Below, piece after piece: positions 5,321 to 34,138 of a DNA stretch of 64,000 nucleotides (within the stretch, counting starts at the first letter, position 1; every line of letters starts with the position of its first letter). The stretch comes from a bacterium (lineage in GTDB: Bacteria > 4484-113). The translations under genes and the position numbers were made by a program. The DNA is taken from positions 16,089 through 80,088 of the forward strand of contig JAGGTK010000099.1 of assembly GCA_021163765.1 (NCBI GenBank), read 5' to 3'. The notes under the pieces are model-generated. The model was given only the letters and a program-made list of their open reading frames with translations, did no database searches and was not told the origin of the DNA.

Positions 5321-6442
5321 ATGCCTTCCGCCGCAGAAGAGACGGTTTTCGCCCGCAGGAAACCCATCCCGCGCATGCCAAGCGCGTATCCACGCAGGCG
5401 CGAAGTCGCGATTGGCCCGGTCGTAATCGGCGGCGACAATCCCGTGACCATCCAGTCCATGACCAACACTCAGACGACTGATGTTAGCGCTACTGTCGCC
5501 CAGATCGGCCGCATGGCAGCACTCGGTTGCGACCTTGCGCGCGTGTCGGTGCCGGACGAGCAAAGCGCCGAAGCGCTCCGCGCAATCAAGCAGGAAATAA
5601 GCATTCCGCTCATCGCCGATATCCATTTCAACCCTGAGCTTGCATTGGCGGCTATTGATGCAGGCGTGGATAAAGTGCGCCTGAACCCTGGGAATATCAG
5701 CACCCGCGAACGCATAGCTCCGGTGGCAAAGGAGCTTGCGCGGAAGCGAATTCCGGTCCGCGTCGGCGTCAACGCGGCCAGCATAAGCCACGACCTGAGA
5801 CAGCTCCACCGCGAGGATCCAGTAAAGGCGATAGTGGAAAGCGCGCACCGCTATGTGGAAATCCTGCGGGGATTCGGCGTCCACGACGTTGTCGTAGCGT
5901 TGAAGAGCAGCGATGTGCTCAATACAATAAAGTGCTATCGCCGGTTCGCCACTGAAAGCGACCTGCCGCTGCACATAGGCATTACAGAGGCGGGACCCGG
6001 CCTTACGGGAGCAGCACGCAGCGCTGTGGGCATAGGAATACTGCTCGCGGAGGGCCTGGGAGACACCGTGCGAGCCAGCCTGCCAGGCGACGTTGAGGAT
6101 GAAATCATCGTATGCCGGGAGATACTCGCCAGCCTGGGCTTGCGGGAAGCGCCGCGACTCGTCGCATGCCCGACATGCGCCCGGGCGGAGTTTGACGTCG
6201 CGGCGATGGCTGATGAAATCCGACCGCGCGTGATGGCACTAAGCAAACCCGTTAGTGTGGCGATTATGGGGTGCGTGGTGAACGGCCCAGGCGAGGCGGA
6301 GCACGCCGACCTGGGGATAATCAGCGTTAGCGGCAAGTTTATGGTTTACCGCAGCGGCAGGGTTATTACCAAGGGGCTCGGCCAGGCAGCCGCCCTGAGC
6401 GCTCTCCTCTCGGAGCTTGAAGCCCTGGAGGCGGAGCCGTGA
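5321..6442 (+). CDS. ispG: 4-hydroxy-3-methylbut-2-en-1-yl diphosphate synthase (flavodoxin)
   Basis: VTIQSMTNTQTTDV, VRVGVNAAS and CPTCAR...GCVVNGPGEA motifs are collinear with bacterial IspG/GcpE. An alternative start at 5375 is possible. Confidence 0.9.
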   Translation: MPSAAEETVFARRKPIPRMPSAYPRRREVAIGPVVIGGDNPVTIQSMTNTQTTDVSATVAQIGRMAALGCDLARVSVPDEQSAEALRAIKQEISIPLIADIHFNPELALAAIDAGVDKVRLNPGNISTRERIAPVAKELARKRIPVRVGVNAASISHDLRQLHREDPVKAIVESAHRYVEILRGFGVHDVVVALKSSDVLNTIKCYRRFATESDLPLHIGITEAGPGLTGAARSAVGIGILLAEGLGDTVRASLPGDVEDEIIVCREILASLGLREAPRLVACPTCARAEFDVAAMADEIRPRVMALSKPVSVAIMGCVVNGPGEAEHADLGIISVSGKFMVYRSGRVITKGLGQAAALSALLSELEALEAEP

Positions 6443-7158: not shown

Positions 7159-8276
7159 AAAACTGCACGCTTTATCTGCTGCCGCTTCTTGTTGTATTCG
7201 CACTTAGCAGCGCCGTCCTGGCTGGAGAAACCTTCACCATCATCATTGAGAACCAGCGCGACGGGCGCATACTAGTGCAACGCGGTGCCGATGCCACCGA
7301 GGTGGGGCATGTGCTGGTGCCCTGCAACGCGGTAAACCACAATGGATTCACCGCCAGCGCGTGGGCGGCCGACGGCACCGTATGCGCAACAGCGGTAAAC
7401 GCGATACATATCAAAGTTGGAAACTCGACCGAGACGGGACGCGGCATTGTGTTTTCACTTCAACCGGCTGAGTTTCTGGATTTCGATCCGGCAGATTACG
7501 GAAGCTATTACTCCGAGAGCGCCTCTGTGTTCACCGACATCCCCGCCGGTACCGGCATTTTCGGCGGCCCGTTTGCGCCGCTCGTGGGAAGCCCGCTATC
7601 CGTGCTGGAAGAATCCGCCACAGACGAACTCGCGCAAGCAACGGAAGTGTCTCCCGAATACGTGCCACAGGCGGGCGACACATTGCTCATCGCTGTGTCG
7701 CGTTCGCCAGCGGCAGACTATATCGAGTTCGATAACGGCTTTGGCGGGCTGATTAGCTTGAAGCGCGCTGGCGAGGAACCCGAGGTTATCGGACAGGTGC
7801 TCAAGCCGGTCGCGGGAGTGGGGAGATTCGGCGGCTCCATCTATGCGGGCGTGGGGCGCATCCGCGCCAATCACCCCGGTGTTGTTTGCGTAAGCACTTC
7901 ACCCATTGGCGAGATTGGGGGCTTTCAGATAATCCCAAGCCACCACGCGATGAGCCCTGAGATGACATTTGCGCGAACGCTGACCCAGTGGATGGTTGTT
8001 GGGCCGCTTGACGCCCGCGAGCCAGGCTGGGAAGGCGCTGCGCCGCTTTTCTTCGGAAATCTGTACCCAAGTTACTTGCCACTCGTCAGCGACACGCCGG
8101 AACTAAAGAGCATAAGCGCTCTCAACCGGTTGCTGGGGCGGTTCCACGTTCTGGGCAGGATGCGCGGAAGCGATGAGTGGACTGCGCTGCCAACCGTAAC
8201 CGGGCGGGCTGACGACGCGCTGGTGGACCTTGCGGCCATCCGCATCTACTTCCCGATGCCTGTCGGGGCCAATTAA
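7155..8276 (+). CDS. secreted hypothetical protein
   Basis: 373 aa with a signal-peptide-like N-terminus (LLPLLVVFALSSAVLAGE). Coupled to the GT2 gene (ATGA). No family recognised. Confidence 0.5.
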   Translation: MKNCTLYLLPLLVVFALSSAVLAGETFTIIIENQRDGRILVQRGADATEVGHVLVPCNAVNHNGFTASAWAADGTVCATAVNAIHIKVGNSTETGRGIVFSLQPAEFLDFDPADYGSYYSESASVFTDIPAGTGIFGGPFAPLVGSPLSVLEESATDELAQATEVSPEYVPQAGDTLLIAVSRSPAADYIEFDNGFGGLISLKRAGEEPEVIGQVLKPVAGVGRFGGSIYAGVGRIRANHPGVVCVSTSPIGEIGGFQIIPSHHAMSPEMTFARTLTQWMVVGPLDAREPGWEGAAPLFFGNLYPSYLPLVSDTPELKSISALNRLLGRFHVLGRMRGSDEWTALPTVTGRADDALVDLAAIRIYFPMPVGAN

Positions 8277-8294
8277 CCCAAGAGCCGCTTGCTG

Positions 8295-9260
8295 TTACTC
8301 CAGGCGGCCGATATCACGAAGAAGGAGCCGGCGCGCGATGATTTCGAGCGCGGATGGCTGCTCCAGCCCGCGCAAAGGGCTTGGATAACCGACAGCCTCA
8401 GCACTCAGCATGTCGAAGATATCAAAGACGTTCCGCTTCTTCTCATATGCCACGACTTTCGCGTCTTCGGGGAGTCCGGCAAGCTCCCTGGCCTTTGCCT
8501 TGGCAGCTTCCAGGCCTCCCAGCTCGTCCACGAGCTTTAGCTCAAGCGCATTCTCGCCGGTATAGATCATCCCCGTAGCCAGCTTCCGCACGTCCTCCAC
8601 TTCCATTCCCCTGCCCGTGGCAACAGCGCTTATGAACTGATCGTGAACCTGGTCCAGCATCCTCTGTAGCATCGCGCGCTCGTTTTCCTTCATCTCGCGC
8701 GTTGCGCTGCCGATATCCTTAAACTCGCCCGCTTTCAGTGTTACGCTGCGAATCCCGTATTTCTCCAGCAGGCTTGAGTATTCTAGGCTGTCCCATATCA
8801 CCCCGATGCTGCCGGTCAGCGTGCTCGGGTTGGCGAAAACGTATCCGGCAGGGGACGAGATGTAATAGCCCCCGCTGGCGCACACGTCGCCCATACTGAC
8901 TACCACCGGCTTCTCGGCATTCACCTTTGCGACTTCCTCAAATATCTCGTGACTGGCGGCGGCGCTGCCGCCCGGGGAGTTGACGCGCAGAACGACGGCG
9001 CGAATGTCGTCGTCCTCGCGCGCTTTCTCGAGCATTTCAATCAGCTCTACGGAAGATACGTACGAACCGCCAAACAACGACCTACCAGACTCCGCATCTC
9101 CCGTTATCGCACCCTCGGCATACACAAGCGCAACACGGTCGCCGTGCCCGCCAAAGCCGTCCTTGCCGGTCATACCCACCATGAATTGCCTGCTCAGCAA
9201 TACTAGCGCGGCCACGAACAATAGGAAAATTACGAGACCTGTTGTGAATTTTCTGCTCAT
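8295..9260 (-). CDS. sppA: signal peptide peptidase SppA (36K type)
   Basis: N-terminal TM helix, then RVNSPGGSAAAS, CASGGYYISSPA and GSIGV, as in S49 peptidases. Confidence 0.85.
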   Translation of the reverse strand: MSRKFTTGLVIFLLFVAALVLLSRQFMVGMTGKDGFGGHGDRVALVYAEGAITGDAESGRSLFGGSYVSSVELIEMLEKAREDDDIRAVVLRVNSPGGSAAASHEIFEEVAKVNAEKPVVVSMGDVCASGGYYISSPAGYVFANPSTLTGSIGVIWDSLEYSSLLEKYGIRSVTLKAGEFKDIGSATREMKENERAMLQRMLDQVHDQFISAVATGRGMEVEDVRKLATGMIYTGENALELKLVDELGGLEAAKAKARELAGLPEDAKVVAYEKKRNVFDIFDMLSAEAVGYPSPLRGLEQPSALEIIARRLLLRDIGRLE

Positions 9261-9316
9261 ATTCCTCTCCGAAACACAGTCATTTTACCTTAGTTCCGCT
9301 CGCAGCACACAGGATA

Positions 9317-9345
9317 TTACCATCATCGCCCAACTCAGCTATAAT
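9317..9345 (+). promoter_or_regulatory. candidate sigma70-type promoter of the 9.4-17.1 kb operon
   Basis: TTACCA (9317-9322), a 17-nt spacer, then TATAAT (9340-9345), about 20 nt upstream of the GTG start at 9366. Confidence 0.3.
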
Positions 9346-9365
9346 CACGCGGCGGGGGCTGTAAC

Positions 9366-10910
9366 GTGGCCAAGCTGCTGGAACACAAAGCTAAAGAAAT
9401 ACTTGCCCGATTCGGAATCCCGGTGCCCCGGGGGGAGATTGCCGCCGATGCGGACGAAGCCGCAGCGGCAGCCGAGCGCATCGGATTCCCCGTTGTGCTT
9501 AAGGCTCAGGCATTCGTAACCGGCCGAGCGGGAAAAGGCCTGATACACTTCTGCGATAGCTCTGCCGAGGTGCGCGATGCCGCATCCGATGTGCTGGGGC
9601 GTACGGTCGGCGGCTTTCCCGTTGAAACCATCCTAATCGAGGAGAAGCTGCGCATAGCGTCAGAGCTCTTTGCAGCGTGCATGGTTACGGACGAAATACC
9701 GGGGCCGCTTGCCCTGCTCGCGGACCGTGGCGGCAGCGGCGTCGAGCAGATGGCGCGGGACGGCAAGGCCACGCTCGCAAGCCGCCCCTTTGACGCCACA
9801 ACGGGCCTGAAGCTCTACGAGGCCAGATCGCTGGCAGTTGAGTGCGGCATCACGGGAAAACAACTGTCCGCCGTGTCCGGCTTCCTGGTCAGGCTTGCGA
9901 AGGTGTTTCTCACCGAAGAAGCGAGGAGCCTTGAGGTCAACCCGCTCGTTATGACCGAGGGCGGGAAGGTTTTTGCGGCGGACTGCCATTTCTCAGTCGA
10001 CGACTACGCCGCAGGCCGCCACCCCGAGCTGGGAATCGAGATTGCGCGCGAAATCGGCCATCCCCCGACCGAGCTGGAGAAGATTGCCGCGGCATATGAG
10101 GCAACCGACCATCGCGGGACTTTCTACTTCCTGGAACTCAGCGCTGAAGGAGACCGGCCTGTGGGATTCCACGGTGCGGGCGGGGGTGGAAGCATGATGA
10201 GCATGGACGCGCTCGTCAGGCACGGCTTCACCGCCAAGAACTTCTGCGACACCAGCGGCAATCCCAGCGCAGCCAAAGTCTACCGCGCCTCCAAGCACAT
10301 CCTCGCGCAAGGCGGAATCGTCGGCTATTTCGCCAGCGGCAGCGGCGTTGCCAGCCAGGAGCAGTTCCACTCGGCCCGCGGCATGGTCAAGGCCTTCCGC
10401 GAGTGGCCGCTCAATGTCCCCGCGGTTATCCGGCTGGGCGGCAACAAGGAGGAGCTCGCCATTGAGATACTGGGGAAGTTCCTTTCCGACCTGCCGGTTC
10501 CCGTTGAAGCGTACGGGAAAGACGACAGCGCAGCGTTCTGCGCCGAGCGCCTGGACGCATTGGTCAAAGAGCATCCGCCGGTCGAGCCATACGACTGCAT
10601 TCCCACTGCCCGCACCGAGGTCGCAAAGGACGAATATGCATTCGATGTGCGCACCGGCACCATCAGTATCGACCACGCGATCTGCAGGAATTGTGAATCC
10701 AGGCCCTGCATCGAGAGCTGCCACGCCGAGATCCTGGAGATCGCTAACAGCGCCCCGCGTTTGAAGGAACCCGCTGAAGAATCAGCCCACCGCTGTACCG
10801 AGTGCCTGGCCTGTGAGCTTGCATGTTACGGGGCTGGAATGCGCTCAATCGCCATCAACCTTCCTATTCCCGGATTCGACGAGTATCTCGCAAAGCGGGG
10901 TGGGCAATGA
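9366..10910 (+). CDS. succinyl-CoA synthetase beta-like (ATP-grasp) ligase subunit fused to a C-terminal 2x[4Fe-4S]-type Cys domain; citryl-CoA-synthetase-like
   Basis: MAKLLEHKAKEILARFGIPVP...FPVVLKAQAFVTGRAGKG...GFHGAGGGGSMMSMDAL is collinear with SucC but divergent from it. The last ~80 aa carry CRNCESRPCIESC and CTECLACELAC. Confidence 0.65.
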   Translation: MAKLLEHKAKEILARFGIPVPRGEIAADADEAAAAAERIGFPVVLKAQAFVTGRAGKGLIHFCDSSAEVRDAASDVLGRTVGGFPVETILIEEKLRIASELFAACMVTDEIPGPLALLADRGGSGVEQMARDGKATLASRPFDATTGLKLYEARSLAVECGITGKQLSAVSGFLVRLAKVFLTEEARSLEVNPLVMTEGGKVFAADCHFSVDDYAAGRHPELGIEIAREIGHPPTELEKIAAAYEATDHRGTFYFLELSAEGDRPVGFHGAGGGGSMMSMDALVRHGFTAKNFCDTSGNPSAAKVYRASKHILAQGGIVGYFASGSGVASQEQFHSARGMVKAFREWPLNVPAVIRLGGNKEELAIEILGKFLSDLPVPVEAYGKDDSAAFCAERLDALVKEHPPVEPYDCIPTARTEVAKDEYAFDVRTGTISIDHAICRNCESRPCIESCHAEILEIANSAPRLKEPAEESAHRCTECLACELACYGAGMRSIAINLPIPGFDEYLAKRGGQ

Positions 10911-11815
10911 GCATCCTGGTAAACGAGAATACGCGGGTCATTGTGCAGGGGATTACCGGACGCGAAGGCCAGGTGAGGACGCGCCTTATGCAAGGCTATG
11001 GGCCGAGCGTCGCCGCGGGCGTCACACCGGGGCGAGGCGGCGAAGAAACGCTAGGGCTGCCCGTATTCGACACCGTCGCCGGCGCTGTGAATCAGGTGGG
11101 TGCGGTTGACGCAAGCGTGGTGTTCGTCCCGGCCACCTTAGCCGCAGACGCGGCAATGGAAGCTATGGACGCAGGCGTTAAGTTCGTCGTTATCGTGCCG
11201 GACCGGGTTCCGCTGCACGATGTGATGAAGCTCTGTAAGTTTGCCGAGGAGCACAATGCTCGGTTTCTCGGCCCAAATACACTTGGCTGCCTTTCGCCCG
11301 GCAAGGGAGTGCTGGGAATGATGGGCGGAAGCCCGGAGGCGGCGCGCGACTTCTTCGCGCCCGGCCGCGTTGGCGTGACCAGCCGCAGCGGCGGCATAAC
11401 ATCAAGCATCGCTTATTACCTGAAAAAAGCAGGCATCGGCACGAGCACAATAGTCCACGTCGGCGGAGACAGCATCGTCGGCCTGCCGCATCCAGAAATC
11501 CTCAGGCTGTTTGAGGAAGACGCAGAAACCGATGCTGTCGTGATGTTCGGCGAGATTGGGACGACGCAGGAAGAGCGCGTCGCTGAGATGATTAGGCGGG
11601 GGGATTTCACCAAACCGCTCGTTGCCTACATCGGGGGCAAGCAGGCTGAAGAAGGGACACGCTTCTCGCACGCCGGCGCCATCGTTGAAGGCGGCCGCGG
11701 TGACTACCAGAGCAAAGTCAGCGCGCTTGGCGATGCGGGAGCTGTCATCGTTGAGAGATTTGAGGATCTTCCGTCCGAAACCGCCAGAGTCCTTGCGGAG
11801 TTGAATGGAAAATGA
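10907..11815 (+). CDS. succinyl-CoA synthetase alpha-like (CoA-binding, phosphohistidine) subunit
   Basis: MSILVNENTRVIVQGITGREG...GVTPGRGG...TRFSHAGAIVEGG is collinear with SucD and retains the catalytic His loop. ATGA overlap with the upstream gene. Confidence 0.7.
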   Translation: MSILVNENTRVIVQGITGREGQVRTRLMQGYGPSVAAGVTPGRGGEETLGLPVFDTVAGAVNQVGAVDASVVFVPATLAADAAMEAMDAGVKFVVIVPDRVPLHDVMKLCKFAEEHNARFLGPNTLGCLSPGKGVLGMMGGSPEAARDFFAPGRVGVTSRSGGITSSIAYYLKKAGIGTSTIVHVGGDSIVGLPHPEILRLFEEDAETDAVVMFGEIGTTQEERVAEMIRRGDFTKPLVAYIGGKQAEEGTRFSHAGAIVEGGRGDYQSKVSALGDAGAVIVERFEDLPSETARVLAELNGK

Positions 11816-12597
11816 ACGATCAGACCTGGAAAACCGCCATCACGTCCATTGAGCCGAACGAGATTCGGCTGCGAGGATACCGCCTTGACGAGCTGCTTGG
11901 CAAAGCTAGCTTCGCGGGCGGCGTCTTTCTTCTCTTTCATGCGCGGCTGCCCGAACCCGCAGAAGAGAAGCTTTACGACTCCATGCTGCTTGCAAGCATT
12001 GACCACGGTATAACCCCGCCGTCGGCTCAGGCGGCAAGGCTTTCGGCCTCCACCGGAGCGCCGCTGAACGCTGCGCTCGCAGCAGGAATCCTGTCAATTA
12101 ACAAGTACCACGGAGCTGCAATCGAACCCGCGATGCGCGCACTCCTCGAACTGAAGGAGAAGCTCGATGCCTCCGGCCAGACGACCGGAGAGTTCGCCCG
12201 GGATTTCGTATCGCAAGCACTCGCGGAGAAGCGGCGCCTTTTCGGATACGGCCACCGCATCCATACGCAGGACCCGCGCACCCAGCGCCTGTTCGATCTT
12301 GCCGCGGCCGCAGGCAAGGACGGCGTTTATCTGAAGCTCGCTAGAGCTATCGGCGAGGAGCTGAGCAGCCAGAGCGGGCGCAAACTCCCGCTTAATGTTG
12401 ACGGCGCTATCGCGGCGCTGCTGTGCGAGCTGCAATTCCCCGTGGAGGTGTGCAACTTCTTTTTCATACTTCCCCGAGTCGCAGGCATGACGGCGCACTT
12501 CCTCGAAGAGGTTACGCGGGAAAAGCCTATGCGCCGGATTGATTCTGGCAAGGCTGAGTATGACGGGCCGACCGCAAGGCCGCTGGGGGGCGAGTGA
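11812..12597 (+). CDS. short citrate-synthase-family protein, citryl-CoA lyase-like
   Basis: At 261 aa it is much shorter than a citrate synthase. FGYGHRIHTQDPR and LPLNVDGAIAALL correspond to the catalytic His and Asp regions of the family. ATGA overlap upstream. Confidence 0.6.
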   Translation: MNDQTWKTAITSIEPNEIRLRGYRLDELLGKASFAGGVFLLFHARLPEPAEEKLYDSMLLASIDHGITPPSAQAARLSASTGAPLNAALAAGILSINKYHGAAIEPAMRALLELKEKLDASGQTTGEFARDFVSQALAEKRRLFGYGHRIHTQDPRTQRLFDLAAAAGKDGVYLKLARAIGEELSSQSGRKLPLNVDGAIAALLCELQFPVEVCNFFFILPRVAGMTAHFLEEVTREKPMRRIDSGKAEYDGPTARPLGGE

Positions 12598-13148
12598 TGA
12601 AAGACGAATTACTGGCAGCCATTCCTGAACTCCGCGAAATAGAGAACGAAATCCTGCGAGACCAGTGCGTGAGCGCTTTCCTGGACGCTATGCACATTGC
12701 AGGCAGGACGCCTGCCGAGCTGGCGGAGATGCCGTTTACGCTGCTCATCAGCCCGTGTTCCATCAGTTTCGTGGATCACACACGGCGCGTGACGCGCACC
12801 GCCCTGGCAATCGCTGAAGTTCTTGCGGATAACTGGCAGGGCGAGGACGCGATGGAGTTTGACCGTGATATTCTGCTCGCGACCGCGCTGCTCCATGACG
12901 TGGGCAAGATCCTCGAATACGAGCGCGAGCCCGGCGGCAACTGGCGCAAGAGCGAATGCGGCAAGCTCCTCCGGCACCCGGTGTCCGGCGCGGGGATATG
13001 CATGAAATGGGGCCTGCCCGACCGGGTTGTGCATGGCGTGATGTACCACAGCCATGAGGGCGACGGCAATCGCGCAACGCTGGAGGCGGTTATTGTCAAC
13101 CACGCCGACTTTCTGAATTTCGAACCACTGAAACTCAAGTATGGGTAA
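12594..13148 (+). CDS. HD-domain metal-dependent phosphohydrolase
   Basis: FVDHTRRV...TALLHDVGKILE...RHP...YHSHEGD...NHAD forms an H..HD..H..D pattern. Overlaps both neighbours. Confidence 0.7.
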   Translation: MMKDELLAAIPELREIENEILRDQCVSAFLDAMHIAGRTPAELAEMPFTLLISPCSISFVDHTRRVTRTALAIAEVLADNWQGEDAMEFDRDILLATALLHDVGKILEYEREPGGNWRKSECGKLLRHPVSGAGICMKWGLPDRVVHGVMYHSHEGDGNRATLEAVIVNHADFLNFEPLKLKYG

Positions 13149-14391
13149 AACGTTTTCCGAGAAGGTCTTCAGCAGCAAAGCGGGCAGGGACGTTAGCGCC
13201 GGCGAAATCGTCACGCTGGAGCCCGACTATATACTGACCCACGATAACACTGCCGCCATACTGAAGAAACTTCCGGAAATCGGCGCGGCAAGGCTAAAGT
13301 ATCCGGAACGCGCAGTCGTCGTGCTCGATCACGTTACGCCCGCCGCCGATAGCACGCATGCGGCAAACCACAAGTCAATACGCGCGTTCGTCGCCGAGCA
13401 GGGCATCAATAACTTCTACGATGTCGGGCGGGGAGTGTGCCACCAGATCATGGTGGAGGAGCATTACGCGTACCCGGGCAAGCTCATACTGGGCAGCGAC
13501 TCGCACACAACCACAGCGGGCGCCGTCGGAGCCTTCGCCGCGGGTATCGGGCGCACCGAAGCTGCTGGCATCTGGGTGACCGGCGAACTATGGCTGCGCT
13601 GCCCCGAAACGATGCGGATATCGCTCAGCGGCAAGCTGCGCAGCTATGCTTCGGCAAAGGACCTGGCGCTGACGCTCATCGGCCGCATCGGCGCGGATGG
13701 TGCCATATACCGCGCAGTTGAGTTCTCCTGCGAGAATGATGACCAGTTCTCGGTCTCCGACCGTATGGTCCTCTGCAACCTTGCAGCCGAGATGGGAGCG
13801 AAGAATGGGTACTTCGCCCCGGATGAAACTGTTGCGGAATACCTGGGTGAAACCGGCAGCGACTTCAGCCACCTGCGCTCTGACGCGGATGCTCATTACA
13901 TTGAGGAACTGGCTTTCAACCTTGCCGAGATTGAGCCGGTCGTTGCCGCCCCGCACGCTGTCGACAACGTTCATCCTGCTGTAGAGCTAGCTGGGAAACG
14001 CATCGACCAGGCCCTACTCGGAACGTGCACTAACGGACGCATTGAGGACTTGCGGACAGCGGCGATAGTCCTGGAAGGGCGAACAGTTTCCAGCCATGTC
14101 CGGCTACTCGTATTCCCCGCTTCCGCGAAAGTCTACCGCCAGGCGCTGGATGAAGGGATAGTGCGCACGCTGCTCGACGCGGGTGCTGTCTGGATGAACC
14201 CCGGATGCGGGCCGTGCCTGGGCGCACACGAAGGCGCGCTTGCGCCCGGCGAAGCCTGCATTTCCACCGCTAACCGCAACTTTAAGGGAAGAATGGGGCA
14301 TCCTGACTCGGAGATCTACCTTGCCAGCCCGGCTACGGTGGCCGCCAGCGCCATCGCAGGGGAAATCGCGCCACCGGAGGAGTACTTCTGA
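13141..14391 (+). CDS. aconitase-family dehydratase large subunit (LeuC/HacA type)
   Basis: 416 aa. LTHDNT, GSDSHTTTAGA, GTCTNGRIEDL, CGPCLG and NRNFKGRMG are the Fe-S ligand and substrate motifs of the 3-isopropylmalate/homoaconitate dehydratase family. Confidence 0.8.
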   Translation: MGKTFSEKVFSSKAGRDVSAGEIVTLEPDYILTHDNTAAILKKLPEIGAARLKYPERAVVVLDHVTPAADSTHAANHKSIRAFVAEQGINNFYDVGRGVCHQIMVEEHYAYPGKLILGSDSHTTTAGAVGAFAAGIGRTEAAGIWVTGELWLRCPETMRISLSGKLRSYASAKDLALTLIGRIGADGAIYRAVEFSCENDDQFSVSDRMVLCNLAAEMGAKNGYFAPDETVAEYLGETGSDFSHLRSDADAHYIEELAFNLAEIEPVVAAPHAVDNVHPAVELAGKRIDQALLGTCTNGRIEDLRTAAIVLEGRTVSSHVRLLVFPASAKVYRQALDEGIVRTLLDAGAVWMNPGCGPCLGAHEGALAPGEACISTANRNFKGRMGHPDSEIYLASPATVAASAIAGEIAPPEEYF

Positions 14392-14873
14392 TGGGCCGCG
14401 TCTTCAAGTATGGTGACGACGTGAACACCGATGTGCTGTTCCCCGGCAAACACACCTATACCGTCAGCGATCCCCTGGAGATGGCGCAACACGCCTTAGA
14501 AGACCTCGATCCGGCGTTTGCGAAAGAGGTGAAGCCCGGCGACATCATCGTGGCGGGGAGCAATTTCGGGTGCGGCAGCAGCCGCGAGCAGGCTGTCCTG
14601 GCACTGAAATACGCAGGAGTCACCGCAGTCATCGCAGAAAGCTTCGCCCGCATCTACTACCGCAACTGCATCAACAGCGGCCTGCCAGCACTGGCGCTGC
14701 CCGAAGCTGTTAGTGCGCTAAATGACGGAGACGAAGCAGAAGCAGATTTAGCGGCAGGCGTGGTCAAAACCAGCAAAGGCGATTTCTCATTTGCTCCCTT
14801 ACCGCCCGAGGTCCAGGCGATACTCGACGCGGGCGGGCTTATAGAATATTTGCGCAAACGGTTCGCCCGATGA
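14391..14873 (+). CDS. aconitase-family dehydratase small subunit (short LeuD/HacB type)
   Basis: 160 aa. [13 protein letters not shown]...[13 protein letters not shown]...[17 protein letters not shown] overlap with the large subunit. Confidence 0.8.
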
Positions 14874-14892
14874 ACCACCAGGAGGATTCTGC

Positions 14893-16017
14893 ATGGCCAA
14901 ATACCGCATAGCCTGGCTGCCAGGCGACGGAGTCGGAAGAGACGTAATGGAGGCTGCGGGCATAGTGCTCGATGCCATCAGACTCGATGCCGAGCGCATC
15001 CCCGCTGACGTCGGCTGGGAGTTCTGGTGCAACGAAGGCACTCCGCTGCCCGAACGCACGAAAGAAGTCCTGCGGCAGACGGATTGCGCCCTGTTCGGCG
15101 CCATCACCAGCAAGCCGCGTGATGAAGCCGTACACGAGCTAGCACCGGAGCTGCAAGACAAGGGCTACTCATATTTCTCGCCCATCGTGCAGATTCGCCA
15201 GGAGTTCAACCTTCACACTAATCTGCGGCCCTGCAAGGCTTTTCCGGGTAATCCGTTGAACTACCGGGACGACATAGACCTGGTTGTGTTCCGCGAGAAC
15301 ACTGAAGACCTCTATGCTGGCGTCGAGTGGTTCCCGCTGCCCGATGGCGTAAGAAAGGCCATAGACACGCACCCGAAGATGAAGCGCTTCGCCAGTGTTC
15401 CCAACGAGGAGATTGCGGTGAGCCTCCGTCTCAACACGGTGAAAGGATGCGAGAGCATTGCGCGGCAGGCCTTTGAATACGCCCGCAAGCACAACCGCAA
15501 GCGCGTGACCATTGTTGAGAAGCCGAACGTCATCCGCGAAACTAGCGGCCTGATGGTGAGATCTGCCAGGAAGGCCGCTGCTGACTATGCCGACATCCGC
15601 TTCGATGAAGCTAACATAGACGCGATGTGCATGTGGCTGGTTAAGAACCCGCAGGATTATGACGTCCTCATCGCTAGCAACATGTTTGGCGACATCATCA
15701 GCGACCTGGCGGGCCAGCTCGTTGGCGGGCTGGGCTTTGCCTGCAGCGGGAATCTGGGTGATGAATACGCGCTGTTTGAGCCTACGCACGGAAGCGCACC
15801 GAAATACGCCGGCCTGTACAAGGTCAACCCCATGGCTATGTTGCTTTCCGTGAAGCTGATGCTCGACTGGCTCGGCGAAACAGGAAGTGCAGGCCTATTG
15901 GAGCAGGCGATTGCAGCCGTGATTGCCGAAGGCAGGATTCGGACGTATGATATGGGTGGCAGTAACTCTACGCTTGATGTCGCGGAAGAAGTAGCACACA
16001 AAATTACGGGGGGATAG
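14893..16017 (+). CDS. isocitrate/isopropylmalate/homoisocitrate dehydrogenase family protein
   Basis: IAWLPGDGVGRDV, LRPCK, RENTEDLYAG, NMFGDIISDLAGQLVGGLG and EPTHGSAPKYAG. The substrate cannot be assigned from the sequence alone. Confidence 0.8.
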   Translation: MAKYRIAWLPGDGVGRDVMEAAGIVLDAIRLDAERIPADVGWEFWCNEGTPLPERTKEVLRQTDCALFGAITSKPRDEAVHELAPELQDKGYSYFSPIVQIRQEFNLHTNLRPCKAFPGNPLNYRDDIDLVVFRENTEDLYAGVEWFPLPDGVRKAIDTHPKMKRFASVPNEEIAVSLRLNTVKGCESIARQAFEYARKHNRKRVTIVEKPNVIRETSGLMVRSARKAAADYADIRFDEANIDAMCMWLVKNPQDYDVLIASNMFGDIISDLAGQLVGGLGFACSGNLGDEYALFEPTHGSAPKYAGLYKVNPMAMLLSVKLMLDWLGETGSAGLLEQAIAAVIAEGRIRTYDMGGSNSTLDVAEEVAHKITGG

Positions 16018-17148
16018 ATGAAGGCTATTGTTCTCGGTTGCGGCCTTGTGGGAAATGAGATTGCGCGCGACCTGGCGCGGGGCAACGATTTCGCCGTAAC
16101 AGCGGTCGACATCAATGCGGGCGCGCTGAGTGCACTGGGCGACGTGCCCGGCATCACCACTATTGAGGCGAATCTCGCTGAGAGAGATAATCTCATCCAG
16201 CTTGTCAAGGAACACGACATCGCAGCAGTTGCAGTCCCCGGCTTCATGGGGTATCAGACGCTTGAAGCTGTCATCGAGGCTGGGACACACGCTGTAGACA
16301 TCTCCTTTACGCCGGAGGACACGCTGGAGCTGCACGACCGCGCACTCAAAGCGGGTGTCATCGCCGTTGTAGACTGTGGTGTTGCTCCGGGGCTGTCCCA
16401 CGTCCTGGTTGCAGACGCATCCTCACAGCTTGATACCGTTGAGCTGGTAGCCATATACGCAGGGGGATTGCCCGCCAACCCGGAGCCACCCTGGAATTAC
16501 AAGGCGGTTTTCTCGCCGCTGGACGTAATCGAGGAGTACACACGGCCTGCGCGGATCGTCCAAGAGGGCGAGATTGTTACCGTAGACGCGCTATCGGAAG
16601 TGGAGTTCATCCAGCTCCCTGGCATCGGGACCCTTGAGGCTTTTGCCAGCGACGGTTTGCGCTCGCTGTTGACGACAATAAAGGCCGACCGGATGTTCGA
16701 GAAAACTCTGCGTTATCCCGGACATGCGGAGAAGATGCGCAGCCTTCGTGAAGCAGGAATGTTCGGCAAGGATGCCATAGAGGTAGGCGGCGTTGCCGTC
16801 AGGCCCATCGAGGTTATCAGCAAGCTGCTCTTCCCCAGCTGGAAGCTCCGCGAAGGCGATGAGGACATAACCGTCTTACGCGTCATCGTAGAAGGAATGA
16901 AGAACGGCCAGAAGCTCAGCTATACATATGATCTAGCTGACCATTACGACAGAGAGCATCAGATTACATCTATGGCGAGGTCGACGGGCTACATGGCCAC
17001 ATCAGTTGTAAGGCTCATACGCGATGGCGCTTTCACCCGCAAGGGCATCTCCCCACCGGAGTCCCTGGGCATGGAGGAGAGCTGCTATCGCACGCTAATG
17101 CAGTTGCTCGACGCACGCGGGGTCGTAGTCAAACAGCGCGCCGGTTGA
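16018..17148 (+). CDS. saccharopine dehydrogenase family NAD(P)-binding protein
   Basis: An N-terminal Rossmann motif VLGCGLVGNEIARDL and a ~376 aa layout (..VDCGVAPGLSH..RYPGH..) resemble the saccharopine/lysine dehydrogenase-like family. The start abuts the upstream stop. Confidence 0.65.
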   Translation: MKAIVLGCGLVGNEIARDLARGNDFAVTAVDINAGALSALGDVPGITTIEANLAERDNLIQLVKEHDIAAVAVPGFMGYQTLEAVIEAGTHAVDISFTPEDTLELHDRALKAGVIAVVDCGVAPGLSHVLVADASSQLDTVELVAIYAGGLPANPEPPWNYKAVFSPLDVIEEYTRPARIVQEGEIVTVDALSEVEFIQLPGIGTLEAFASDGLRSLLTTIKADRMFEKTLRYPGHAEKMRSLREAGMFGKDAIEVGGVAVRPIEVISKLLFPSWKLREGDEDITVLRVIVEGMKNGQKLSYTYDLADHYDREHQITSMARSTGYMATSVVRLIRDGAFTRKGISPPESLGMEESCYRTLMQLLDARGVVVKQRAG

Positions 17149-17213: not shown

Positions 17214-17762
17214 CTAGGTTTCTTCCCAGGGAATAGCCTTAAGCCTATGCTTTGTTCGCCTGGCGTTGATTGCTTCTAGGTGGGATCGCGCTTTACTCCG
17301 ATTAAGCGCACCAGTTGCTATTAGCTTCTTCAAGCACCGCACTGTATTGAACATCTTAGACTGGTTAATTCCTACATCACGAGCAACTTTGCTCATGGGA
17401 GTATCCTCAAACAGCAGAATCATCCCTCTGCAATATGCTAACGCTACGACCTCCCTGTCTACTTCGCTCACCTCCTTTCCAAAAGCTCTCTTCTCAAAGA
17501 TGGCGGCACGGAAGCTCTCATCAATAGTGGGTTGAATGACACTAATAAGCCCCCGACGTTTTAAGTCCCCAACAAGCACACGCTGCTTAGGTCTTATTAT
17601 CTCTCTTTCAATCTGAGGAGTAATGGCTAAACCTCCAAATGCAACGGCTAATTGCTCCAGGCAGTTAATGTTGATGAAGCTAAAGAGGATGCTTGAATCG
17701 ACAAGAACACGAGCCGATAGAAACTCAGGCCGGTCGCTTCCCCCACTCGACCTGTCACGCAT
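17214..17762 (-). CDS. PIN-domain-like protein (putative toxin/RNase)
   Basis: VLVDSSILFSF...EVDREVVALA...LFEDTP gives the acidic-residue spacing of PIN domains. It overlaps the upstream XRE-ImmA gene by 8 nt and lies in an AT-richer segment. Confidence 0.5.
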   Translation of the reverse strand: MRDRSSGGSDRPEFLSARVLVDSSILFSFININCLEQLAVAFGGLAITPQIEREIIRPKQRVLVGDLKRRGLISVIQPTIDESFRAAIFEKRAFGKEVSEVDREVVALAYCRGMILLFEDTPMSKVARDVGINQSKMFNTVRCLKKLIATGALNRSKARSHLEAINARRTKHRLKAIPWEET

Positions 17763-18933
17763 TCTCAGCTCTGTTATACTCCATCAGGAATGAATTAAGC
17801 GCTTCGCGGTCGCACATCGCCAGTTCGCAGGCTCTACTGAACGTAATAAGGTCCTTCTCTAAAGCCTCGATGACCAAGCGTAACATCCTCGGAGTTGACT
17901 CTATTTTAGTCGCCCACATGTGAACAACTTCTGAGAGCTGTTCCGGGATGTGCTGCGAGGCTCGCATCTCGAGCTGGCTGTCTTTAATTTGAGCATAGTG
18001 CTTCCAAGTGATGAATCCAAGATGGGCAAGCGTTTTCGCTGCAGCCTGAAAGCTCACTTGAAAGTGCTTCGCCAAGCGAGAGATGTCTTCTGACCGTATT
18101 GGCCCCTTCAGCTGAAACCGCCCCTCAGCAAACTCACGAATAGACGACTCCGGCATAAGGAACACTCCGGCGAAGTGGTTTGCGCGCAGCTCCTTGTTGT
18201 CGTCTATAGTCCTGCCCCGCCTCTTGTCCTCTCCGTAGCTCCGGGTTAAAACCGCGTATTTCGCAGTGTCGACCAGAACGTGGGCCAACTCGTGAGCCAG
18301 CGTGAACCTCTGTCTCTGTTCATGCTCGCGAGCTTCCACGATTATGAAAGGCCTTCCGTTGTAGCGCAGAGTTAGGCCTGATACTCCTTCAGGCAAGTCC
18401 CAGGTTGTCCAAACGATCCCGTTGTCCTCCAGTTTCTGCTCGAAATATTCGACAGGCCCATCCCTTGCCCCGAGGACGTTACGCGCCCAGCCAGCTAGTT
18501 CTATAGCCTGTTCTCGTGCCCTTTCAGAAGACCTGTTCTGCGGGTAGCGCTTATCCAGCGACGGAAGCTGACTGGTAGGCTTGCGTCCGAGAGTCTCCTC
18601 TATCTCGCTAATCCGTTTCATCTGGCGTTGCGCTCTACGTACGACCCGAACCAGCTCTTCGTTATTCGCATCGTCACCGCGCAGACAGGCACCCGCAGTG
18701 ACCTGCAACGGGTCTGGCTCAAGCCCGAACAGCTCTGCGAGCGTACACTCCATCTTTTCGCAAAGAGCTTGTATCTCCGAACCACGCAGTTCTCGCTTAC
18801 CGTTCTCCAGCTCAGAAATGGCACGAGGGCTACGCAGGCCGATGGCTAGCGCCAATGCCGTCTGGCTGAGATTGCGCGCTTTCCTTAGAGCCTGGATGGA
18901 CTCGCCTAGTTGACGGTAATTATACGACCTCAT
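17755..18933 (-). CDS. XRE-family HTH fused to ImmA/IrrE (COG2856) zinc metallopeptidase domain
   Basis: An N-terminal HTH (LRKARNLSQTALALAIGLRSPRAISELENG), then HEXXH (LAHELAHVLVD) and ANHFAGVFLMPE, typical of ImmA/IrrE. Confidence 0.78.
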   Translation of the reverse strand: MRSYNYRQLGESIQALRKARNLSQTALALAIGLRSPRAISELENGKRELRGSEIQALCEKMECTLAELFGLEPDPLQVTAGACLRGDDANNEELVRVVRRAQRQMKRISEIEETLGRKPTSQLPSLDKRYPQNRSSERAREQAIELAGWARNVLGARDGPVEYFEQKLEDNGIVWTTWDLPEGVSGLTLRYNGRPFIIVEAREHEQRQRFTLAHELAHVLVDTAKYAVLTRSYGEDKRRGRTIDDNKELRANHFAGVFLMPESSIREFAEGRFQLKGPIRSEDISRLAKHFQVSFQAAAKTLAHLGFITWKHYAQIKDSQLEMRASQHIPEQLSEVVHMWATKIESTPRMLRLVIEALEKDLITFSRACELAMCDREALNSFLMEYNRAENA

Positions 18934-18992: not shown

Positions 18993-19499
18993 CTACTCCA
19001 TGCGCAGCAATCCGCCAGCCCGGTAGATCTCCACCTGCACGGAGGAGATGGGGGGCTCGGCTTGAAGCACGGTATTCGTTCGTTCATTGGTAAGCGTGCC
19101 AGCTTCCATATCCAGCGCCAGCACGTCGCCAGGCTCAACCGCTCCGGCCAGATCGGGTATCTGTGCAGCCGGCATTGCCGCGTTTATGGCGTTTCGTAAG
19201 TAAATTGGCGCCACGGATATGGCGATAACGCCAACACAGCCCAGGGCTTTGAAGCAGTCCACCGCCTGCTGGCGGCTGCTCCCTGCCCCGAAGTTGCGGC
19301 CGGCCACCACCCATGAGCCGGGCTTAACGCGCGCGGCGAAATCCTCGTAGCCCTCCAGATTCCCCAACGCGTGCTGCGCCATTTCAGAAAGCTCCGTGAT
19401 ATGCAGCCAGCGATTGTGGAAAATCATATCCGTGTCGATGTTGTCCAGCAGCGCGCCGCTTGCGTCCACGAGCGGGAATGCGCTGCCCGTTATCCGCAT
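18993..19499 (-). CDS. second aconitase-family dehydratase small subunit (LeuD/HacB-like, divergent)
   Basis: Start set at the internal Met (MRITGSAFPL...), just after the large-subunit stop. NIDTDMIF...GRNFGAGSSRQQA...APIYLRNAIN. Confidence 0.75.
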   Translation of the reverse strand: MRITGSAFPLVDASGALLDNIDTDMIFHNRWLHITELSEMAQHALGNLEGYEDFAARVKPGSWVVAGRNFGAGSSRQQAVDCFKALGCVGVIAISVAPIYLRNAINAAMPAAQIPDLAGAVEPGDVLALDMEAGTLTNERTNTVLQAEPPISSVQVEIYRAGGLLRME

Positions 19500-19504
19500 C
19501 CGGC

Positions 19505-20764
19505 TCACCGCTTTGCCTCCGGGACAGTGATACGACCCGCACGAACGCTGGCAGCCACGGTCGCCGGGCTTGCGAGATAGGTCCGGCCAGCGCCCTGCTT
19601 GCCTCGGAAGTTGCGATTGGACGTGCTCACCTGCACCTCTCCTTCGCCGGTCATTCCAACCTGGCCCGCGGCGCAACCTCCGCATCCCTGGTTGTGAATC
19701 AGCGCCCCAGCCTGGAAGAAGCCTTCAATCAGCCCTTCTGACAGTATCTGGCCGTAGACCTCGCGGGTCGCGGGGACGAGTTTCAAAGTTACACCCGCAG
19801 CAACGCCGCCATCCTCAAGCTGGGCATAACCCTCGTTGAAGTCCTCAAAGCGCCCGTTGGTGCAAGAACCGATAAACCCCGTATCTATTCGCACGCCCTC
19901 CTCTGCCACAATACGCACCGGACGGACGCTGGCGGGAGAATAGGGCTCGGCTATCATCGGCTCGATCACGCCAAGGTCCAGCGTCACTTCGTCGACATAT
20001 TTCGCATCAGGATCCGCAGTTATGGTCTCGACGGGAGAGTTCGTACGTCCGCCGAGCCAATCCAGGACCGAGGCTCCAGGCGGGATGATGGCGATTACGG
20101 CACTCATCTCGGTCGCCATCGAAGCCAGAGTGATACGCCCCGGTAAGTCAAGCGTTTCTACTACGTCACCATAAAACTCGACCGCCCGACCCAAAAGGCC
20201 GCCGCTGCCAAAATGGTGAACGATAGCCAGAGTCAGGTCTTTCGCGGATGCGTTCGGCGCGAGTTTACCGCTGACATTTACCCGCACCGTCGCCGGGACT
20301 TCGAACCACACCTGCCCGGTGTGGAACGCATAGGCGACATCCACATCACCCATTCCCTGGCCGAGAGCGCCCACCGCGCCCAGTATGTTGTAGTGGCTGT
20401 CAGTGCCTATCGCGGTAATCCCTGGGATCGCAAGGCCCTGCTCGATGAGCAGGTGGCTGCCGATTCCCGCATCCACGTCGTGAACCGTGATGCCGCGCCG
20501 TCTTGCAAAGTCACGGCATATCTGCTGGTTAGTTGCATAGCCGGCCGTATTCGCGGGAGCGTTGCAGTCAAACGTGAACCTTATCCCGTCCGCGTTGAAT
20601 ACGGCTGCGTCAGCACCATAGGCTGCAAGGAAGTTCTTGACAACATTGGCGCCGCCAAAGTCGCGCGCCGTAACAACGTCCTGAGGAAGCCAGACGACGT
20701 CACCGGCGGCGGCTGGGCTGCCCAGTTTCGCAGATACCAGCTTCTCGATTATTGTCTGTCCCAC
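19505..20764 (-). CDS. second aconitase-family dehydratase large subunit (LeuC/HacA-like, divergent)
   Basis: 419 aa with a GTG start. GTDSHYNILGA, GSCTNGRFEDF, CGGCAAG and NRNFRGKQG. Confidence 0.8.
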   Translation of the reverse strand: MGQTIIEKLVSAKLGSPAAAGDVVWLPQDVVTARDFGGANVVKNFLAAYGADAAVFNADGIRFTFDCNAPANTAGYATNQQICRDFARRRGITVHDVDAGIGSHLLIEQGLAIPGITAIGTDSHYNILGAVGALGQGMGDVDVAYAFHTGQVWFEVPATVRVNVSGKLAPNASAKDLTLAIVHHFGSGGLLGRAVEFYGDVVETLDLPGRITLASMATEMSAVIAIIPPGASVLDWLGGRTNSPVETITADPDAKYVDEVTLDLGVIEPMIAEPYSPASVRPVRIVAEEGVRIDTGFIGSCTNGRFEDFNEGYAQLEDGGVAAGVTLKLVPATREVYGQILSEGLIEGFFQAGALIHNQGCGGCAAGQVGMTGEGEVQVSTSNRNFRGKQGAGRTYLASPATVAASVRAGRITVPEAKR

Positions 20765-25891: not shown

Positions 25892-26737
<846 letters not shown>

Positions 26738-34077: not shown

Positions 34078-34138
34078 ATGTTCCACGTGGAACAATCCGG
34101 CACTGCGAAAGGCTGCCTGGACGGCAAAGGAGCTGGCA

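Follow-up and report, generated by a model that had tools for sequence, protein, structure and literature searches.

The present analysis concerns a 64,000-nucleotide stretch of bacterial DNA (contig JAGGTK010000099.1 of assembly GCA_021163765.1), referred to here as the window, and in particular an operon at positions 9366-17148 of its forward strand, whose eight genes encode the proteins designated P1 to P8. Strong comparative evidence indicates that these proteins belong to one linear pathway, in which a carbon-carbon lyase for a citrate-like acid is combined with two (de)hydratases and a β-decarboxylating dehydrogenase. The interpretation that is tentatively preferred is that the operon interconverts 2-oxoadipate, CO2 and NAD(P)H with 2-oxoglutarate and acetyl-CoA by way of homocitrate, with the participation of an ATP-coupled ligase. 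The functional unit consists of a seven-gene core, a second dehydratase, which in the window is encoded on the opposite strand at 18993-20764, and a lineage-specific eighth gene.

Genes were annotated through Pfam and NCBIfam profile searches with curated cut-offs and through sequence matches to solved structures, and all domain calls of a preliminary description, which had been made from the letters alone, are borne out by both profile collections. As that description had stated, the eight open reading frames are co-directional and closely packed, with six of the seven junctions overlapping by 1-8 nt or abutting, the exception being a 19-nt gap ahead of P7. The promoter-like site that it had placed at 9317-9345 (+), TTACCA-17 nt-TATAAT, lies 21 nt upstream of the first start codon and is the best match between 8900 and 17600 (10 of 12 positions of a sigma-70-like consensus), as a pattern match only. 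No terminator-like sites were found on the + strand within the operon. That unrelated genes were brought side by side by chance, or that the contig is mis-assembled, has a probability of practically nil, because the identical operon is carried by four independent metagenome contigs, the order P1-P7 is kept at about 50% protein identity across several other phyla, and six of the seven junctions show translational coupling; the operon is a real unit and not a chance arrangement.

Conservation was assessed by a scan with a P1 alignment, taking one genome per species, which returned at least 600 stretches, at least 537 of them encoding a P1 relative, and the best 80 loci were examined. All 80 derive from uncultured organisms of the Planctomycetota, Aminicenantes/Acidobacteriota, WOR-3, Anaerolineae, Calditrichota, Hydrothermota, Gemmatimonadota and Desulfobacterota, and the nearest genomes among the matches listed are metagenome-assembled genomes (MAGs) of Planctomycetales, with 69-89% identity in P1. 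The preliminary description had suggested looking for the exact eight-gene order in relatives; the order P1-P7 does recur, in MAGs of Aminicenantes, Anaerolineae, Calditrichota, Hydrothermota and Planctomycetota, and P8 is confined to a Planctomycetales clade. The complete or near-complete carriers include CP070750.1 (Aminicenantes) and the 252-kb contig Ga0186713_128280, and LS998015.1 (Zixibacteria) represents the relatives with CitDEF or a fused homoaconitase. Gene presence was determined by tblastn of the eight window proteins against the loci and counted over the 45 loci in which 5.6 kb or more of sequence follows P1. P2 was present in 44 of these, P3 in 40, following P2, P4 in 36, P5/P6 and P7 in 31 each, and P8 in four; a second LeuCD-like pair, P5'/P6', was present in 23 and an MmgE/PrpD-family gene in six.

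The argument for a single pathway rests on the exchange of modules around a constant framework, since P4 and P7 stay while other components are swapped, and three genomes have P2 and P3 joined in one protein. The fusion proteins are 565-614 aa long (L035:11534-13303, L077:4288-5985 and L080:11412-13256) and are an independent re-creation, within this operon family, of the architecture of the α subunit of ATP-citrate lyase (ACL). Three positions of the pathway are swappable: the lyase system resembles either citryl-CoA synthetase (CCS) plus citryl-CoA lyase (CCL) or the citrate lyase CitDEF, the homoaconitase-like enzyme is split or fused, and the second dehydratase is LeuCD-like or PrpD-like, with the HD protein and the dehydrogenase present alongside nearly every module variant. 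CitDEF-type genes stand in for P1-P3 in loci L091, L120 and L124. L091, from an Ignavibacteriales MAG (8023-16859), encodes in order a dehydrogenase (54% identical to P7), an HD protein (41% identical to P4), a fused homoaconitase, a PrpD-like protein, a CitD/CitE fusion that scores well below the citE cut-off (301 against 443), and CitF; the metagenome contig L124 has the order CitDE-CitF-P4-P5-P6-P7-P5'-P6'.

The preference for a homocitrate-type substrate derives in part from the dehydratases. P5 (13141-14391, +; 416 aa) is the large subunit of a LeuC/HacA-type Fe-S (de)hydratase and P6 (14391-14873, +; 160 aa) its small subunit, with matches to Aconitase and Aconitase_C, respectively, in Pfam. 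P5 exceeds the cut-off of the hacA_fam model (541 bits against 386) and remains under the equivalog cut-offs of LEU2 (453 against 611) and HacA_Meth, while P6 exceeds that of LEUD_arch (191 against 109) and falls below that of leud (180 against 246). The small-subunit loop is an accepted determinant of specificity in the aconitase/LeuCD-type family (PMC7308503). In P6 this loop reads FPGKHTYT, with the pattern FPGK[YH]TY conserved in about 40 orthologues, and it differs from the loops of both Methanocaldococcus jannaschii small subunits, YLRT in the homoaconitase HacB and YLVY in the isopropylmalate isomerase LeuD. A counterpart is provided by fused aconitase-family proteins assigned to TIGR00139, the NCBI equivalog model "homoaconitase" with a cut-off of 530 bits. 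In a Calditrichaceae MAG (L033) such a protein, of 652 aa, is encoded by a divergent neighbour of P1-P4 and scores 881 bits, and the fused protein of L091 scores 902 bits; both have the loop YPGKYTY, matching the GKYTY of P6 orthologues. This fused family, named homoaconitase by NCBI, is widespread in Calditrichota, Zixibacteria, KSB1 and Ignavibacteriales, and its members are 35-41% identical to P5/P6 as against 27-32% to P5'/P6' (for the large subunit, 35-38% for P5 as against 27-31% for P5').

The second dehydratase of the window is encoded on the reverse strand by P6' (18993-19508; small subunit, loop FHNRWLH) and P5' (19505-20764; large subunit, 419 aa), a divergent LeuCD-type pair about 36% identical to P5/P6. 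P5', which is 37% identical to P5, is below all NCBIfam cut-offs (383 against 385), and P6' scores 117 bits on LEUD_arch. The pair is part of the operon itself in other phyla, where it follows P7 or separates P4 from P5. Either P5'/P6' or an MmgE/PrpD-family gene was present in 27 of 28 complete loci, and the two never occurred together. The PrpD-like proteins reach 64-92 bits on models of 2-methylcitrate dehydratase, far under the cut-offs, and are paired with an aconitase-family enzyme in L042, L082, L091 and L092. In a scan centred on P5', operon genes adjoin it in 21 of 35 long loci, and in several of these the pair lies between P4 and P5; the stand-alone P5'/P6' loci showed no recurrent neighbours. 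In L082 and L085 the PrpD-like gene precedes a 2-oxoacid dehydrogenase E1 α/β pair, which was considered as a downstream step and set aside, as it occurs at two loci only and is followed by complex I genes. In Zixibacteria (L090 and L092) the fused homoaconitase gene is followed by a gene for a major facilitator superfamily transporter, and in L092 then by a PrpD-like gene, an arrangement that hints at uptake of an external acid.

P7 (14893-16017, +; 374 aa) belongs to the β-decarboxylating dehydrogenases that comprise isocitrate dehydrogenase (IDH), isopropylmalate dehydrogenase (IPMDH) and homoisocitrate dehydrogenase (HICDH), with an Iso_dh match of 3e-83. Its best NCBIfam model is the methanogen homoisocitrate dehydrogenase AksF2, at 325 bits against a cut-off of 540, and on the leuB model it reaches 196 against 353. 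Thermus HICDH is among its top solved relatives, IDH and HICDH structures matching at 1e-64 to 1e-60 as against 1e-48 for IPMDH. The substrate loop of P7, FSPIVQIR, has S-P-I-V where the NAD-dependent IDHs 6lky and 6m3s have S-V-N and S-I-N and Thermus HICDH has G-A-I-R, so that the Asn of the IDH S-x-N motif, which binds the γ-carboxylate of isocitrate, is replaced by Ile. Orthologues from different phyla are 66-72% identical and conserve the SPIV loop. Stand-alone orthologues with 71-74% identity were found in Thermoplasmatota and other genomes, three of which gave no gene context.

The ligase is formed by P1 (9366-10910, +; 514 aa), an ADP-forming acid-CoA ligase β subunit resembling SucC and CcsA, and P2 (10907-11815, +; 302 aa), a SucD-like α subunit with the phosphohistidine motif SHAGAI. 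The matches to ATP-grasp_2 (2e-36) in P1 and to CoA_binding and Ligase_CoA in P2 agree with the earlier identification of a SucC-like and SucD-like pair keeping the ATP-grasp and SHAGAI motifs, and SHAGA is kept in 60 of 61 P2 orthologues. Its proposed divergence from orthodox SucCD also stands, both subunits being under the NCBIfam cut-offs (198 bits against 370 for SucC, 298 against 353 for SucD), although P2 is nearer to archaeal SucD (1e-81) than to CcsB (2e-48) or the ACL α subunit (6e-36). The C-terminal, acid-binding half of P1 is closest to CcsA of Hydrogenobacter thermophilus, with which it has the motifs PPTE, DHRG, GGGGS and GNPxAxKxY in common, and some P1 homologues show weak Citrate_bind and ACL ATP-grasp matches. 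The citrate-binding residues of CcsA (GGTANNT and VRRNGP) are not kept: IRLGGN replaces VRRNGP and GVASQEQ[FY]HSAR replaces GGTANNTRID, both replacements being near-invariant in 78 P1 relatives. Human ACLY has VRRGGP at this position, of which we take the second Arg to be R379, a citrate ligand, and the citrate-binding set to be N346/T348/R379.

P1 owes its length to a terminal ferredoxin-like domain of the 2x[4Fe-4S] type (10608-10835, +; about aa 415-490), which is absent from the preliminary description. The domain is recognised by a Fer4_9 match and by a weak NCBIfam match to the δ subunit of 2-oxoglutarate:ferredoxin oxidoreductase, and its eight Cys residues (C440, C443, C448, C452, C477, C480, C483 and C487) are invariant in 17 diverse P1 homologues that are about 50% identical. 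The matched SucC, CcsA and ACL structure chains, of 385-429 aa, are too short to hold such a domain and have no counterpart. The Fe-S-bearing β subunit also occurs without a partner in a Cloacimonetes genome (L005, 10001-11572), where it adjoins a carboxyl-transferase gene, and β/α pairs without a lyase are found in one Anaerolineae and one Planctomycetia genome (L034 and L043, around 10000-12500); from these lyase-free occurrences, the P1-type ligase may hold a second role.

P3 (11812-12597, +; 261 aa) is a short citrate-synthase-family acyl-CoA lyase of the CCL type, matching only positions 162-355 of the Citrate_synt profile, that is, the C-terminal part without the N-terminal half. The earlier comparison with the CCS/CCL system is upheld by its best solved relative, the CCL of H. 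thermophilus (6hxp), to which it is about half identical (7e-55); as citrate synthases match at 3e-18 or weaker, P3 is not a truncated ordinary citrate synthase. On one NCBIfam citryl-CoA lyase subfamily model it scores 238 bits against a cut-off of 212, and on another subfamily model and all equivalog models it stays below (for example, 202 against 261). The catalytic His/His/Asp residues are retained, and the motifs IDHG, GYGHR(IH), DPR, NVDG and PRVAG are conserved, among them the GYGHRIH and NVDG noted previously. All three Arg residues of the oxoacid site of CCL and citrate synthase are likewise kept, as would be expected for another dicarboxylic 2-oxoacid, and the loop from His to Arg, GHRxHTxDPR, has one residue fewer than in either enzyme.

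P4 (12594/12597-13148, +; 183-184 aa) is a stand-alone HD (HDIG) metalloprotein with an HD match of 2e-14. The search for solved relatives by sequence gave none, the only PHROG matches were two weak ones to families of unknown function, and a single-sequence AlphaFold model was unusable (pLDDT, the predicted confidence score, of 45). The conserved motifs are PFTLL, HD..GK, RHP, EGD and HAD. The preliminary description had regarded the HD hydrolase as a misfit; its presence in most loci with sufficient sequence, and also in the CitDEF-type variants L091 and L124, marks it as a core, co-conserved component. Speculatively, P4 could isomerise the alkene between the two dehydratases, in the manner of PrpF in the AcnD route.

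P8 (16018-17148, +; 376 aa), whose start abuts the P7 stop, is an oxidoreductase of the saccharopine-reductase/lysine-6-dehydrogenase family, with the domains Sacchrp_dh_NADP and Sacchrp_dh_C (5e-47) over its full length. Its best solved relative, at 8e-70 over the full length, is PH1688 of Pyrococcus horikoshii (PDB 3abi), presumably an NAD-dependent L-lysine 6-dehydrogenase; the function of P8 is putative. P8 was seen only in L007-L010 and L098, all of the Planctomycetales clade, so the earlier proposal of a pathway ending at the saccharopine-dehydrogenase-family enzyme does not hold generally, P8 being an add-on of this one clade. In an archaeal MAG (L087), a gene of the saccharopine-dehydrogenase family lies near a P7 orthologue; being only 31% identical to P8, it was rejected as an orthologue of P8.

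Taken together, these features suggest a plan like the citrate-cleavage arm of the reductive tricarboxylic acid (TCA) cycle, one carbon longer, whose steps are proposed from sequence and gene context. P7 would convert 2-oxoadipate, CO2 and NAD(P)H reversibly into homoisocitrate; the homoaconitase-like P5/P6 would interconvert homoisocitrate and cis-homoaconitate; and the second dehydratase, P5'/P6' or elsewhere the MmgE/PrpD-family protein, would interconvert cis-homoaconitate and homocitrate. P1/P2 would then use ATP and CoA to turn homocitrate into homocitryl-CoA by way of a phosphohistidine, as in succinyl-CoA synthetase and CCS, and P3 would cleave this product to acetyl-CoA and 2-oxoglutarate. 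All steps would be reversible in principle, and in the reverse direction the operon would take the place of homocitrate synthase and conserve ATP. P8 would, in the Planctomycetales clade, connect the route with lysine and aminoadipate semialdehyde.

The requirement for two dehydratases may be explained by stereochemistry. In their known members, the citrate-synthase family and citrate (pro-3S)-lyase have the same facial (Si) specificity, opposite to that of the LeuA/NifV-type synthases, and both lyase modules would therefore be expected to handle the enantiomer opposite to the (R)-homocitrate made by LeuA/NifV-type enzymes. Since this enantiomer would not be dehydrated by ordinary homoaconitases or LeuCD, a dedicated second dehydratase would be needed, one that would be superfluous for prochiral citrate. 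The methylcitrate cycle, in which PrpC, PrpD and aconitase act in sequence, offers a parallel, as PrpD is needed for the Si-type 2-methylcitrate.

With regard to direction, cleavage, as in the catabolism of 2-oxoadipate or lysine with consumption of NADH and CO2, is the side to which the evidence leans, because the characterised CCS, CCL, ACL and CitDEF enzymes cleave, because the CitDEF variant lacks ATP coupling, and because the likeness of P8 to PH1688 fits a sequence from lysine through aminoadipate semialdehyde to 2-oxoadipate. For synthesis, it can be said that an ATP-conserving homocitrate synthase would suit energy-limited anaerobes. A more specific proposal, which is possible but on the unlikely side, is a "reverse aminoadipate" route of anaerobes, leading from lysine or 2-oxoadipate by reductive carboxylation to homoisocitrate, from there through two dedicated dehydratases to (S)-homocitrate, and finally to acetyl-CoA and 2-oxoglutarate, with the HD protein as an obligatory partner. 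The ATP-dependent homocitrate lyase of this route would be the CCS-like ligase with its Fe-S domain together with a homocitryl-CoA lyase, or alternatively a CitDEF-type homocitrate lyase.

Several observations weigh against homocitrate as the substrate. The specificity assignments depend on a few loop residues and on the names of profile models, and P5/P6 and P7 are under every equivalog cut-off. The P6 loop has no counterpart of the Arg in YLRT, the loop of the methanogen homoaconitase, and P7 has Val at the position of Arg85 in Thermus HICDH, most P7 orthologues reading SPIVRLR, with Arg one position after that site. P3, being above one subfamily cut-off, looks citrate-specific to current models, and, to our knowledge, the characterised enzymes of the citrate-synthase family all use oxaloacetate; the CitF of L091 is also just above the citF cut-off (505 against 501). 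P5'/P6' stand alone in 14 of the 35 P5'-centred loci. For the loops that we assume for the yeast enzymes, SSPIVALR in LYS12 and GIYPGKYTY in LYS4, the literature searched gave no support. Near the operon there is no gene for an aminoadipate aminotransferase, a semialdehyde dehydrogenase or a LysW-type protein, and no aminoadipate-related genes were found within the 64-kb window. A DapL-like aminotransferase gene at 34043-35317 (+), which the preliminary description had held against an aminoadipate route, scores 495 bits against a subfamily cut-off of 507 and 477 against an equivalog cut-off of 593; its assignment is insecure, and it has no bearing on a catabolic role.

Of the two readings offered in the preliminary description, elongation or shortening of a 2-oxoacid through a CoA ester fits the data better, and a citrate/isocitrate module fits less well, because the isomerase has its specificity loop in common with NCBI-defined homoaconitases, the second dehydratase is nearly always present, and the Arg and Asn residues for citrate and isocitrate are absent. 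The citrate module, which is unlikely, would have P1/P2 as citryl-CoA synthetase, P3 as citryl-CoA lyase, P5/P6 as a LeuCD-type aconitase and P7 as an unusual IDH, operating either as the cleavage arm of the reductive TCA cycle or as an ATP-yielding citrate synthase that supplies 2-oxoglutarate for glutamate. The closeness of P3 to the H. thermophilus CCL, with its score above one subfamily cut-off and its catalytic and Arg residues, agrees with this, as do the CcsA-type motifs in the C-terminal half of P1, the weak citrate-related matches of its homologues and a gene content that parallels citrate synthase, aconitase and IDH. Related Planctomycetes genes have also been read in this way (PMC5459899), and a prochiral citrate would raise no stereochemical difficulty. 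However, three independent recognition elements for the extra carboxylate are gone (RR to RL in P1, the loop without Arg in P6 and Asn to Ile in P7), one aconitase would suffice where a second dehydratase is nearly always encoded, and the enzyme that is swapped in as a fused form is a homoaconitase by NCBI's definition, not an aconitase. An autotrophic reductive TCA cycle is moreover unlikely, since the lineages of most carriers are generally described as heterotrophic fermenters.

The loss of carboxylate-binding residues in P7, P6 and P1 at first favoured a leucine/isoleucine route, in which P3 and P1/P2 would replace citramalate or isopropylmalate synthase through citramalyl-CoA or 2-isopropylmalyl-CoA with recovery of ATP, P5/P6 and P5'/P6' would be the isomerases and P7 would act as LeuB, giving 2-oxobutyrate or 2-oxoisocaproate. 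The hydrophobic S-P-I-V loop of P7, which resembles what we take to be the IPMDH loop, T-G-L-L, the P6 loop without Arg, the missing citrate-binding Arg of P1, the second LeuCD-type pair after P7 in many genomes and the high scores of P5/P6 on archaeal-type LeuC/LeuD family models are all in line with it. It was demoted by the variants with a LYS4-type homoaconitase, which has the same loop as P6, and with CitDEF, and is now considered highly unlikely: no leuA, ilv or other leucine or isoleucine genes recur near the operon loci, P3 retains the three Arg residues that hold a dicarboxylic 2-oxoacid, P7 is nearer to IDH and HICDH than to IPMDH among solved structures, and an Si-type condensation would yield (S)-citramalate or (2R)-isopropylmalate, the wrong isomers for known LeuCD. 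Another tertiary hydroxy acid, either of the 2-methylcitrate type or a longer (homo)n-citrate, is distinctly unlikely as the substrate. Iterative elongation of 2-oxoacids to 2-oxopimelate and 2-oxosuberate belongs to coenzyme B synthesis in methanogens, which a (homo)n-citrate variant would resemble, and the best model for P7 is the broad-range AksF2; PrpD-family proteins are known 2-methylcitrate dehydratases, with the low scores given above for the genes found here, and all components are below equivalog cut-offs, which leaves their specificities open. Against this stand the lack of any known pathway with an oxidative decarboxylation of 2-methylisocitrate and the lack of linked downstream genes for coenzyme B or biotin.

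Among the closest known systems, CcsAB (6hxq) and Ccl of H. thermophilus likewise combine a two-subunit, SucCD-like, ADP-forming ligase with a lyase of the citrate-synthase family that comes next and has about 260 aa. The operon differs in the eight-Cys ferredoxin domain of P1, in its replaced IRLGGN and GVASQEQ motifs, in a P2 nearer to SucD than to CcsB, in the shorter His-Arg loop of P3 and in the embedded HD, homoaconitase-like and HICDH-like genes, and its carriers are not autotrophs of the Aquificae type. ACL (AclAB/ACLY) performs the same chemistry as CCS plus CCL, and its α subunit is paralleled by the three P2-P3 fusions; the similarity is nevertheless weak (7e-26 for P1 to AclB, 6e-36 for P2 to ACL α), and the Arg that we take to be ACLY R379 is not conserved. 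CitDEF is absent from the window itself; in three loci it takes the place of P1-P3 beside the HD, dehydratase and dehydrogenase genes known from the operon, and the CitE of the variant clusters is fused to an acyl carrier protein (ACP).

The aminoadipate and 2-oxoacid elongation pathways (LYS20/4/12; LysS/T/U and Hicdh of Thermus; AksA/D/E/F) also combine an aconitase-family isomerase with a β-decarboxylating dehydrogenase, the loop being shared with NCBI-defined LYS4-type homoaconitases and the best dehydrogenase models being AksF and AksF2. Unlike them, the operon has no LeuA/NifV-family synthase, its carbon-carbon step would proceed through a CoA or ACP thioester with a citrate-synthase-family or CitE-type lyase and ATP coupling, its stereochemistry is probably opposite, and an HD protein is added. 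In the fungal aminoadipate pathway, too, two enzymes are reported to be needed to convert homocitrate to homoisocitrate (PMC3556520). The likeness to the methylcitrate cycle lies in the dehydration of an Si-type product by a PrpD-family protein and its rehydration by an aconitase-family enzyme, and the differences in the low scores of the PrpD-like proteins and in the next enzyme, a dehydrogenase and not the PrpB lyase. With PH1688, P8 shares the two saccharopine-reductase-family domains; it is restricted to one Planctomycetales clade, and its coupling to the operon is new.

Within the window, genes for an HTH_3/Peptidase_M78 (IrrE-like) protein and a DUF3368 protein (17214-18933, -) separate P8 from the P6'/P5' pair. 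The closest relative, L007, is without this insertion (end of P8 at 17780, start of P6' at 17990), and the gene pair looks like a small mobile insertion of the toxin-antitoxin type. The locus is flanked by GcpE/IspG (5321-6442, +) and by MqnA of the futalosine route of menaquinone synthesis (20809-21654, +), which are the ordinary housekeeping context of an anaerobic Planctomycete. A 328-aa open reading frame at 31458-32444 (+) joins an IspF (YgbB, MEcPP synthase) domain to a C-terminal RNase H-like (RVT_3) domain in an unusual fusion. The region of about 25.9-56 kb contains an N6/N4 DNA methylase (25901-26737), a LexA-like S24/HTH repressor (32804-33580), a Fic protein (37189-38295) and an SPP1-type phage portal protein (47526-48899, +), a set of genes from which the second half of the window seems to include prophage or mobile DNA.

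The only related report found in the literature is that of Thiel et al. (2017), who described genes of a hot-spring Planctomycete that resemble SucCD and citrate synthase, assigned them a position between the CCS/CCL of Aquificae and type II ACL, and read them as enzymes of the reductive TCA cycle (PMC5459899). No paper was found that deals with the gene context of the operon, the fusion of P1 to an Fe-S domain, the partner HD protein or the modular variants, nor any description of homocitryl-CoA or citramalyl-CoA-type routes or of PrpD/homoaconitase clusters matching the operon. The enzyme families are all known, and there is a real chance that the pathway is new.

The uncultured anaerobic bacteria that carry the operon number several hundred or more at the level of species genomes and belong to abundant phyla of sediments and the subsurface; current pipelines name the products of the operon "succinyl-CoA synthetase", "citryl-CoA lyase" and "isocitrate/isopropylmalate dehydrogenase family". 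Metabolic reconstructions may consequently count its genes as markers of the reductive TCA cycle, as for the hot-spring Planctomycete. The module swaps, between CCS/CCL and CitDEF, split and fused, and LeuCD-like and PrpD-like forms, provide a clear set of enzymes for comparison. If the substrate is homocitrate rather than citrate, such carbon-fixation calls would need to be revisited, a new class of substrate would be added to the citrate-synthase/ACL superfamily, and a route based on an ATP-coupled carbon-carbon lyase, connecting the C6 compound 2-oxoadipate with the C5 compound 2-oxoglutarate, would join anaerobic amino-acid metabolism.

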